Source: Alistipes sp. (GTDB lineage: Bacteria > Bacteroidota > Bacteroidia > Bacteroidales > Rikenellaceae). Taken from it: a DNA stretch of 64,000 nucleotides. Within the stretch, counting starts at the first letter, position 1. The number at the start of each line of letters is the position of its first letter. The DNA is taken from positions 70,445 through 134,444 of the forward strand of contig JAFVIB010000002.1 of NCBI GenBank assembly GCA_017474235.1, read 5' to 3'. Both the position numbers and the translations under genes were made by a program. The notes beneath the pieces are model-generated. The model made no database searches. It had not been told where the DNA came from and saw nothing but the letters and a program-made list of their open reading frames with translations. Of this stretch, positions 18,436 to 20,543 are shown piece after piece.

Positions 18436-18712
18436 TTTTATCGTCAAAATGATTTTATCGTGAAAATAGCACAACTACTGCCGCTAACCTTTTTCTCCTC
18501 AATGGGCAGTACAATTCAGTACAGCCCATCGACTCGAAAAACGCCGAGCGTGGTATTTGCACTATTTTGACGATAAAATGGGTGCAAGAAATACGCATAG
18601 TATGTCCCTTCGCGGGTATTTTTGCCGAGCGTGGCATCTACCGCATTTTGACGACAAAATGGTGCAGAGTGTGAGCAGAGTACAACAAAATGGGTGCAAA
18701 CTATGAGCGGAG
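18435..18712. repeat. Mosaic of palindromic elements: full 128-bp unit at 18452-18579, right half-unit at 18588-18660, and arm fragments
   Basis: Arms ATTTTATCGTGAAAATAGCAC / GCACTATTTTGACGATAAAAT; CCGCTA...GGGCAGTAC-AATTCA-GTACAGCCC...GCCGAGCG. Confidence 0.85.
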
Positions 18713-18829
18713 TATTTGACTCCCTAACCCCCTATATAATATAATGACGGCATTGAGTACTGTAGATTTGGAGTTTTCGATTTTTATTTGTAACTTGCAG
18801 TTGATTAGTACAATAATAGGTGTCGGGTT

Positions 18830-19267: not shown

Positions 19268-19271
19268 AGTG

Positions 19272-19433
19272 ATGAGAAGATTGCTATATCTGCTATTGGC
19301 TCTATTGGGTTTTGTGGTTAGCTCATGCAGGGTTGAGGAGTATGGTTGCCCTCCTGTTGAGTATGATGAAGAGAAGGAGCATAGTCAGAATAATACAGAG
19401 CGTGTAGAGCCTCATTCGGGAGATGAGTATTGA
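19272..19433 (+). CDS. 53-aa lipopeptide with EYGCP motif (absent from the ORF track)
   Basis: Hand translation: MRRLLYLLLALLGFVVSSC-RVEEYGCPPVEYDEEKEHSQNNTERVEPHSGDEY*. Its signal peptide is paralogous to that of the upstream lipoprotein; it starts 4 nt after that gene's stop and ends 2 nt before the rSAM ATG. Confidence 0.85.
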   Translation: MRRLLYLLLALLGFVVSSCRVEEYGCPPVEYDEEKEHSQNNTERVEPHSGDEY

Positions 19434-19435
19434 TT

Positions 19436-20512
19436 ATGAAGGTCGATAAGTTGAGTTTAAGGCGTCGTTTGGCGCTCGAAATATGGCGTAAGTTAGAGGG
19501 TGACAATGTAAAGAGTCACCCTCTGCGCCAACTATTCTGGGAGTGTACGCTGCGTTGTAATCTCAACTGTCGCCACTGCGGCAGTGACTGCAAAACGGAG
19601 GCGGGCAAGAGAGATATGCCGCTAAATGACCTCCTTAAGGTGCTTGATAATATCTCGGCAAATACAGACCCTCATAAGGTATTTGTAATCATAACAGGTG
19701 GAGAGCCGCTGATGCGAGCTGACCTTGAGCAGTGTGGGCGGGCGATATACGACCGTGGTTTTCCGTGGGGTATGGTCACTAATGGTCTTGCTATGACTCC
19801 TGCCCGTTTTAAGCGTCTGCTTGCCTCGGGGATGCACACGGCAACAGTCTCTTTAGATGGTCTTGAGGAGGACCATAACTATATGCGTGGTAATAGTAAC
19901 AGCTTCCGCGCAGCCTCTGATGCTATTGCGATGATGGCGGCAGAGAGAGATTTTGTATTTGATGTCGTAACCTGCGTAACTCAGCGAAATATCGACAAGC
20001 TCGATACAATTAAGGAGCATCTGCTCTCACTCGGCTGTACACATTGGCGACTTTTTACCGTCTTTCCTGTCGGTCGTGGAGCTACGGATGAGAAGTTGCA
20101 ACTCACTTCGCAGCAGATGCGACAGTTGATGGACTATATTGTTGATACTCGTCGCGAGGGCAGAATATCTGTGCAGTACGGTTGTGAGGGATTTTTGGGT
20201 GCATACGAGGGCGAGGTGCGTGACCACTTTTTTGCTTGTCAGGCGGGTGTTACCGTCGGCTCGGTGCTTGTAGATGGCTCTATATCTGCTTGTGCAAGTA
20301 TCCGCGCAGATTACAATCAAGGCAATATCTATACTGATAACTTTTGGGATGTGTGGAACAACCGCTTTGAGCTATACCGCAACCGCGAATGGATGAAAAA
20401 GGATGGCTGTGCAGAGTGTAAGTTCTTCCGCTACTGCAAGGGCGGAGGTATGCACTTAAGAGATGGAGAGGGCAATTTATTGTTCTGTCATCTTGAGAAA
20501 TTGAGAGGATAA
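19436..20512 (+). CDS. Radical SAM/SPASM protein (TIGR04133-like)
   Basis: CNLNCRHC motif, ITGGEPL, SLDG and C-terminal SPASM cysteines (CQAG, SACASI, CAECKFFRYC); ATG at 19436 preferred to the TTG at 19430. Confidence 0.92.
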   Translation: MKVDKLSLRRRLALEIWRKLEGDNVKSHPLRQLFWECTLRCNLNCRHCGSDCKTEAGKRDMPLNDLLKVLDNISANTDPHKVFVIITGGEPLMRADLEQCGRAIYDRGFPWGMVTNGLAMTPARFKRLLASGMHTATVSLDGLEEDHNYMRGNSNSFRAASDAIAMMAAERDFVFDVVTCVTQRNIDKLDTIKEHLLSLGCTHWRLFTVFPVGRGATDEKLQLTSQQMRQLMDYIVDTRREGRISVQYGCEGFLGAYEGEVRDHFFACQAGVTVGSVLVDGSISACASIRADYNQGNIYTDNFWDVWNNRFELYRNREWMKKDGCAECKFFRYCKGGGMHLRDGEGNLLFCHLEKLRG

Positions 20513-20513
20513 C

Positions 20514-20543
20514 AAAAAGTGCCGCAAATTTGCGGCACTCTTT
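20514..20543. terminator. Bidirectional terminator between the rSAM gene and thiL
   Basis: AAAAAGTGCCGCA-AATT-TGCGGCACTCTTT between convergent genes. Confidence 0.7.

Follow-up and report, generated by a model that had tools for sequence, protein, structure and literature searches.

A conserved 53-residue lipoprotein-type precursor beside a TIGR04133 radical SAM/SPASM enzyme of Alistipes is a likely minimal substrate

Lipid-anchored members of the RiPPs (peptides made by the ribosome and modified after translation) have been described for oxidative enzymes that depend on multinuclear non-heme iron (MNIOs). In these diacylglycerol-bearing peptides (DAG-RiPPs), modification in the cytoplasm followed by passage through the lipoprotein pathway was shown experimentally (PMC13056109, PNAS 2026), which is the order expected where the enzyme has no signal peptide. 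Mining for DAG-RiPPs was limited to MNIO neighborhoods, and the terms "radical SAM" (S-adenosylmethionine) and "SPASM" are absent from the text of that study (PMC13056109). Here, we analyze a 64,000-nucleotide stretch of an Alistipes sp. genome (contig JAFVIB010000002.1; "the window" hereafter denotes this whole stretch) in which a 53-codon open reading frame (ORF) is lodged between the gene for a TIGR04134 lipoprotein and the gene for a TIGR04133 radical SAM/SPASM enzyme. We propose that this ORF is probably a translated and maintained minimal member of the radical SAM-associated lipoprotein family and, alongside the full-length lipoprotein, a second substrate of the enzyme that would be modified in the cytoplasm and then exported and lipidated.

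The locus resembles the DAG-RiPP systems (DybA/DybH and NedA/NedBC; PMC13056109) in several respects: a short precursor (50-160 aa) with a signal peptidase II (SPII) signal and lipobox, a conserved modification motif, an adjacent enzyme without a signal peptide, a minimal gene cluster of precursor and enzyme, and acidic residues after the lipobox Cys, although these features are read here from sequence alone. It differs in both enzyme and target, as DAG-RiPPs rely on an MNIO and Cys-based motifs (CPxCGxG, EGKCG), whereas the window encodes a radical SAM/SPASM enzyme and a Tyr-Gly motif. By this analogy, the short form and its enzyme are a plausible first radical SAM counterpart of the DAG-RiPPs.

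Anaerobic sulfatase-maturating enzymes (anSMEs) modify a short Pro-containing motif (C/S-x-P-x-R) near the N-terminus of sulfatases that are exported later. Like the window enzyme, they are SPASM proteins (~360-370 aa) without a RiPP recognition element (RRE), and the structural likeness spans the whole length (template modeling [TM] score 0.66-0.69). In contrast, the window enzyme scores far under the anSME model cutoff (58.9 bits vs 349 for TIGR03942), the target is Tyr-Gly rather than Cys or Ser, and the putative substrates of TIGR04133 enzymes range from folded proteins to 35-residue peptides. A third comparison is with triceptides, whose known sites include Tyr motifs (YSK, for instance) and whose precursors can each contain a motif more than once (PMC12912966); the maturase ChlB is described there as a multiple-cyclophane synthase. 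ChlB is the top structural neighbor (TM 0.71), the invariant Y-G-X3 fits the aromatic-X2-X3 pattern, and the motif is likewise repeated in some precursors. Triceptides, however, use conventional leaders and protease cleavage rather than lipidation, and the likeness to ChlB is one of modeled structure.

The nearest relatives of the short form are the TIGR04134 proteins themselves, which share the TIGR04133 partner, the LLGF..C signal peptide, and the motif [E/M]YGxPxx[D/E][Y/F] shortly past the Cys. They differ by a beta-sandwich domain, where the short form has a disordered acidic tail with a clade-specific motif. Both TIGR04133 and TIGR04134 are hypothetical equivalogs (NCBIfam) with no assigned chemistry, and the literature searched yielded no publication on either family or on a radical SAM/SPASM and lipoprotein system in Bacteroides. 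The family pair is already known, albeit uncharacterized; the short, domain-less form is new.

Translation of the ORF agrees with the preliminary description of this DNA in its coordinates, its 35-residue mature part, and its Tyr and Gly at five and six residues past the lipidated Cys with a further Cys directly after them. Cys19 is preceded by V-S-S, a lipobox-like context in which cleavage is predicted before the Cys, and the mature part contains 11 acidic and three basic residues. An in-frame GTG at 19269 would extend the protein by one Met, but the ATG is the likelier start because orthologs begin MRK or MKR. An open frame of 53 codons is not remarkable alone, and this one lies, as had been pointed out, under the 60-aa default minimum of the ORF listing. 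It is raised above chance by the combination of a signal peptide, lipobox and family motif with tight packing and conservation under strong purifying selection.

Membership in the lipoprotein family is recognizable but incomplete. The ORF has the signal peptide, the YG motif and the TIGR04133 neighbor, while it lacks both a score above the cutoff and the ~110 residues of transthyretin-like beta-sandwich with their DxDGxxNGG loop. A Pfam profile scan returned no match. Against TIGR04134 it scores 15.2 bits (E=0.016, cutoff 39.8), with residues 3-32 aligned to positions 8-41 of the 150-position profile. Direct BLASTP comparison with the upstream 145-aa protein is insignificant (E=19), so the homology is seen through the profile and the family alignment only.

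The evidence that carries our reading is comparative. In a maximum-likelihood tree of 105 radical SAM sequences (partner labels were assigned by regular expression and are noisy, some loci being mislabeled F0), the window enzyme falls within a 100/99-supported clade of 15 loci at 76-88% enzyme identity. The prospect, raised in the preliminary description, that the ORF might be disrupted or absent in all close relatives did not materialize: a motif-bearing short ORF of 53-66 aa occupies the same position directly before the enzyme gene in 11 of the 15 loci. Orthologs are found at G014/L039, G003, G022, L035, L036, L037 (two copies), L040, L041 and L043, and L046, at 71% enzyme identity, has a similar 61-aa short form. 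The short ORF is lost at L042 and L045, and L044 is not scorable, as its contig ends before the upstream region. At L038 (2332-2511; Alistipes sp. RGIG230), the ORF has a signal peptide, lipobox and TDRIEPHAADEGIYE tail, and the YG motif is lost (C/NPDKKETPAPNEKEE...). The simplest history of the clade would be a single origin followed by long retention.

Selection on these orthologs was estimated from a codon alignment, a comparison that had been suggested at the outset. Nei-Gojobori dN/dS is 0.04-0.30 in the closer pairs with estimable dS, indicating purifying selection. Differences are concentrated at third codon positions, with 20.5 synonymous and 5.5 non-synonymous differences between L041 and L043, 14 and 6 between L040 and G003, and 21.5 and 16.5 between the window and L035. 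The purifying signal is present separately in the signal peptide, the motif and, for most pairs, the tail; within the nine motif codons, the window and L036 differ by six synonymous changes and no non-synonymous one. Synonymous sites are near saturation (proportion of synonymous differences, pS, 0.5-0.77), and the frame is still open. Strain-level variants show either E52Q or an in-frame one-codon deletion with two substitutions, and the longer orthologs differ through in-frame insertions. Such a pattern is the signature expected of a translated gene under purifying selection. The comparative data accordingly uphold the core of the preliminary description, namely a genuine conserved minimal precursor (signal peptide, YG motif and acidic tail) beside a TIGR04133 enzyme.

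These same data bear on the view that the ORF is the decaying remnant of a tandem duplicate, either untranslated or functionless. A remnant would explain why TIGR04134 similarity is limited to the N-terminal 30 residues and why two clade members lack the ORF and one lacks the YG, and these genes have often been duplicated in tandem (L037, L057, L075). Decay is, however, at odds with a frame kept across most of the clade despite the near-saturated synonymous sites, with low dN/dS in all regions and in-frame indels, and with short forms that are the sole enzyme partner in other lineages. We consider a remnant essentially excluded.

The tail deserves separate attention. It had been described as acidic; in addition, it holds a conserved motif, T[E/D]R[V/I]EP[N/H]S..DE..Y, under purifying selection (clade consensus T[E/D]R[V/I][E/A]P[N/H]S..DE..Y(E)), which is confined to the Alistipes clade. 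The proportion of non-synonymous differences (pN) in the tail is 0.02-0.30 against a pS of 0.24-0.80 in eight of nine pairs, and the contrast is far weaker between L040 and G022 (pN 0.43 vs pS 0.55). An explanation of this conservation as a DNA constraint of the enzyme's translation start was rejected, as synonymous sites of the tail diverge freely. Because pN is far below pS in most pairs, the constraint is on the peptide and not on the DNA before the enzyme start.

A role in cis is a related proposal. Translation of the ORF would be coupled to that of the enzyme gene and tune its expression, and the peptide would be incidental. Only 4 nt separate the stop of the TIGR04134 gene from the ORF's ATG and only 2 nt separate the ORF's stop from the ATG of the enzyme gene, and most relatives have the end of the short ORF a few nucleotides from the enzyme start or overlapping it. 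Coupling requires an open frame only, yet here the peptide sequence, including lipobox and motif, is under purifying selection; moreover, some short forms, L037a among them, are separated from the enzyme start by 150-580 nt and by other genes. We therefore hold a purely cis-acting ORF to be very improbable.

Beyond the clade, short forms largely share one build: an LGF..C lipobox, then the YG motif. Six positions (M1, L12, G13, C19, Y24 and G25) never vary across 16 aligned short forms from several lineages, and F14 reaches at least 90% conservation. Motif tables for full-length partners (105 proteins, 151 instances) and for short forms (28 proteins, 29 instances) give a core common to both, [E/M]-Y-G-[T/V/S/A/C]-P-x-x-[D/E]-[Y/F]. 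The "extra" Cys beside the YG, mentioned in the preliminary description, is present in the window but has no special status, as that position takes T, V, S, A or C family-wide. Across the family, the YG follows the lipobox Cys at a distance of 1 to 44 residues. A thioether (as in sacti- or ranthipeptides) linking a Cys to the motif was set aside, given this variable distance and no conserved Cys beyond the lipobox. The L-G-F of the signal peptide is nearly invariant in full-length partners too. By contrast, just seven of the ~135 heuristically predicted lipoproteins of the window's genome have LG[FY] close to the lipobox. This difference lends weak support to the idea that the signal peptide does more than direct export. 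The existence of the short form shows that, as judged by comparison, signal peptide and motif make up the unit preserved by selection, and the short ORF may isolate the element recognized by the enzyme, as had been suggested earlier.

Short forms also occur elsewhere in the radical SAM tree (L089; the L009/L012/L018/L020 group; L076 and the L050/53/57/60 group; L100/L106). Partner labels change 11 times over the tree, and at least nine of these changes are forced by well-supported branches. A word-indexed profile search (90%-identity clusters, E up to 0.01) retrieved 111 clusters, 74 of them under 100 aa and 73 of those with the YG. Similarly, an exhaustive hidden Markov model search of 1.84 billion representatives (E<=1e-3) retrieved 321 matches; the best 150 include 80 proteins shorter than 100 aa, 75 of which feature LGF..C and then YG. 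Among the short forms within these best 150 of 321, many hold two or three copies of the motif and have acidic tails of unrelated sequence, and a few are fragments cut off at contig ends. The TIGR04134 profile gives weak matches to 12 of the 16 aligned short forms (best E=7.6e-7).

Gene arrangements vary accordingly among lineages. At the P0120 locus, a short form is the sole enzyme partner and overlaps the enzyme start; in Prevotella (L100, L106), a 72-79 aa form with C/YGPAPRNY is again the sole partner; and P0123 repeats the three-gene layout of the window in another lineage. A regular-expression scan of the window's genome for further ORFs with LGF..C..YG recovered only the two in the operon. 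One array (P0131, L119:3001-6201; GCA_031547885.1) interleaves six short and long precursors (66, 161, 67, 167, 151 and 84 aa) before one radical SAM/SPASM gene, and two of its short members read MYDCPPNDF and MYDTVPTDF, with YD for YG. In the database short forms P0189, P0217, P0224, P0238 and P0242, Y-A replaces Y-G (MYACP or MYAAP).

Conservation of both tail and motif must be weighed where the short form is considered an exported accessory rather than a substrate, either a membrane-anchored acidic protein that assists the full-length lipoprotein as partner or chaperone, or a competitor for the enzyme (decoy or regulator) acting by way of the signal peptide and motif common to both precursors, with the tail as its functional part. 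Purifying selection on the tail motif agrees with such a role, as does L038, which retains tail and signal peptide without the YG. There is also a precedent of sorts: small proteins encoded directly 5' of SPASM genes in Bacteroides graspetide loci were proposed to be PqqD-like helpers (PMC8939145), though these SPASM loci are other than TIGR04133. Nevertheless, the YG is found in 16 of 16 aligned and 75 of 80 database short forms though their tails are unrelated, the tail motif does not extend beyond the Alistipes clade, a lipopeptide that is exported is unable to chaperone a cytoplasmic enzyme, and at some loci the short form is the only candidate substrate. An accessory function is in our view unlikely, if the strongest of the alternatives.

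The 358-aa enzyme is a clear TIGR04133 member (E=6.8e-171, 567.9 bits, cutoff 425) with Pfam Radical_SAM and SPASM domains; the next-best profiles are TIGR04053, the mycofactocin maturase MftC, AhbD and NirJ-type enzymes. The enzyme alignment identifies CX3CX2C at C41/C45/C48 and seven invariant C-terminal Cys, the set expected of a SPASM domain that holds auxiliary clusters. The enzyme lacks a signal peptide and, with only ~30 residues (one helix) before its core, also an N-terminal domain of RRE size, and the operon contains no separate RRE gene. In the AlphaFold2 model (predicted local distance difference test [pLDDT] 92.5), the Protein Data Bank (PDB) neighbors are SkfB, anSMEcpe, SuiB and ChlB, all of them peptide- or protein-modifying SPASM enzymes. 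Within a 301-genome sample of the phylum, TIGR04133 is confined to the window's order, and the control genome, that of the tractable B. thetaiotaomicron, has it as well. The window's genome encodes a second TIGR04133 paralog at 53% identity (G000:C15:56454-57928, L031:1591-3065), whose partner is a 133-aa lipoprotein with the YG directly after the lipobox Cys (TAC/YGMPYQDP).

Based on these features, we propose the following course of events. The three genes would be transcribed and translated as one unit, and the cytoplasmic enzyme would bind the unexported precursor, possibly via the conserved LLGF signal peptide as leader. In both precursors, it would then modify the invariant Tyr-Gly motif ahead of export. 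The chemistry would most likely be a Tyr-centered cross-link, such as a three-residue cyclophane at Y-G-X3, or another H-abstraction at or next to the Tyr; the cyclophane in particular, suggested by analogy with triceptides, is a possibility we regard as doubtful. The modified peptide would next be processed by the lipoprotein pathway (Sec, Lgt and LspA), and the outcome would be a lipid-anchored, strongly acidic peptide of ~35 residues (net charge about -8) located in the envelope, at the cell surface or in vesicles.

Surface display had been suggested from the acidic residues just after the Cys. Lipoprotein export signals are CS(D/E)2 in B. thetaiotaomicron and K-(D/E)2 or Q-A-(D/E)2 in C. 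canimorsus (PMC6222051). The window reads C-R-V-E-E, with an acidic pair at +4/+5 and spacing like Q-A-(D/E)2, but this pair is not conserved: the strain variant P0002 and the nearest relatives (L035-L037) have C-R-V-E-Y-G with a single E, and other orthologs have C-[DEN]-P-E.. with scattered acidic residues. As an argument for surface export, the pair is weak.

Several observations count against the proposal that the peptide is likely a minimal substrate of the TIGR04133 enzyme. Given L038, L042 and L045, the short form is dispensable and the YG motif is not its sole constrained part. The 80-aa short form of the P0132 lineage (L121:3001-3243; ...IRLMYGVPVREFQARP...) has no radical SAM gene within 3 kb; it adjoins Mfa-like fimbrial genes on the opposite strand. 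The structural neighbors of the modeled enzyme span several chemistries at similar scores, with no single one agreed. The [D/E][Y/F] of the motif is, in the model of the full-length protein, the start of beta-strand 1, and its presence in the short form could partly reflect inheritance rather than recognition. Finally, the SPII and lipobox assignment is heuristic throughout.

On the wider family our view is more tentative, and we would rate it somewhat below even. TIGR04133 and its partners may constitute a radical SAM class of lipid-anchored RiPPs that is widespread in gut and rumen Bacteroidales. LLGF..C would be the leader, the Tyr of Y-G-x-P would be cross-linked, the short lipopeptides (some with two or three repeats) would be surface or vesicle products, and the full-length proteins would bear the modification on a folded domain. 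If modification proves true, the DAG-RiPP concept would reach beyond MNIOs to include radical SAM enzymes of gut Bacteroidales, which are abundant. In the short forms, the putative substrate is cut to ~35 residues that hold a single motif and lack a folded domain; a natural test substrate this small makes a question of protein modification tractable at the peptide level. Natural variants (YG, YD, YA, the motif-less L038 and multi-motif forms) map what may be tolerated.

The full-length partner also informs the origin of the short gene. The 145-aa product matches TIGR04134, "radical SAM-associated putative lipoprotein" (E=4e-31, 108 bits, cutoff 39.8), with a weak CarboxypepD_reg match in Pfam. 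It features, in order, the signal peptide MKKLLYLLLGILGFTAC, a Gly-rich tether, a CEYGTPTADF motif and a transthyretin-like beta-sandwich. In its AlphaFold2 model (pLDDT 87), residues 1-30 are signal peptide and flexible tether, the fold runs from residue 34 (34-145), YG30-31 lies at the junction of tether and domain, and F37 is in strand 1. PDB neighbors of the fold are teneurin TTR, intradiol dioxygenase and transthyretin folds. The short ORF retains the part before and at the junction, and its acidic tail stands in for the domain. The likeness of the beta-sandwich to intradiol dioxygenase and transthyretin folds is weak. Full-length lipoproteins also carry an invariant D-x-D-G-x-x-N-G-G loop (residues 98-106 of the 145-aa protein) that looks like a metal or calcium site.

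Descent of the short gene from a truncated duplicate of the TIGR04134 gene, as first suggested, is plausible, since its N-terminal 30 residues match profile positions 8-41. A recent event is not supported; the duplication is old because the short genes are orthologous clade-wide, have their own tail motif, and were duplicated again in L037.

With regard to annotation, the ORF was originally called unannotated. The exact 53-aa sequence is present in NCBI nr, ENA and Logan gene calls, and "functionally unrecognized" is the better term. Orthologs are deposited as "hypothetical protein" (MBQ9137813.1, MBR7182778.1, MBQ5844062.1, MBE6193788.1). The same name applies to all named short matches of the word-indexed search except one truncated 49-aa partial entry labeled "radical SAM-associated putative lipoprotein," the name that full-length matches carry. 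The suspicion that such short ORFs are systematically missed is thus correct for the family model (15.2 bits vs 39.8) and incorrect for gene callers. In practice, short members making up at least dozens of 50%-identity clusters escape the curated model.

The window belongs to contig C24 of a 1.97-Mb genome whose nearest public relatives are labeled Alistipes sp. or Rikenellaceae metagenome-assembled genomes from animal guts. TAnnTTTG is the Bacteroidetes -7 promoter consensus, known from Bacteroides promoters. Between 18401 and 20600 it has two matches, at 18763 and 18617, and none within the three genes (Table 1). The three genes look like one unit because the -7 motif lies 5' only, with none internal, and a hairpin follows the enzyme stop; this hairpin ends the unit ahead of a convergent thiL-like gene.

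Table 1. Coordinates of the operon and of elements within it (positions in the window)
Feature	Position	Strand	Basis or remark
Putative operon promoter, TAGATTTG	18763..18770	+	TAnnTTTG -7 consensus match, 60 nt 5' of first gene; predicted function
Full-length lipoprotein gene, 145 aa	18830..19267	+	TIGR04134 match
Short lipoprotein-type precursor gene, 53 aa	19272..19433	+	ATG at 19272; TGA (19431-19433) counted in; translation MRRLLYLLLALLGFVVSSCRVEEYGCPPVEYDEEKEHSQNNTERVEPHSGDEY, read from the window sequence
Signal peptide and lipobox, M1-C19 (...LLGFVVSS/C)	19272..19328	+	Short-form alignment; heuristic prediction
Family motif E-Y-G-C-P-P-V-E-Y, residues 23-31; putative modification and recognition site	19338..19364	+	Motif position tables
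C-terminal tail motif TERVEPHSGDEY	19395..19430	+	Clade alignments
TIGR04133 radical SAM/SPASM enzyme gene, 358 aa	19436..20512	+	TIGR04133, Pfam
Terminator-like hairpin, 9 pairs (6 G-C)	20518..20539	+	5 nt past the enzyme stop; consensus scan only

An antisense ORF of 62 aa (19318-19506, minus strand) overlaps the short ORF and the enzyme start; no feature supports it, and it is probably spurious. Lastly, the spacer between a RelA/SpoT-like gene and the operon (18436-18700) contains repeated segments of the type "ttttgacgataaaatgg".

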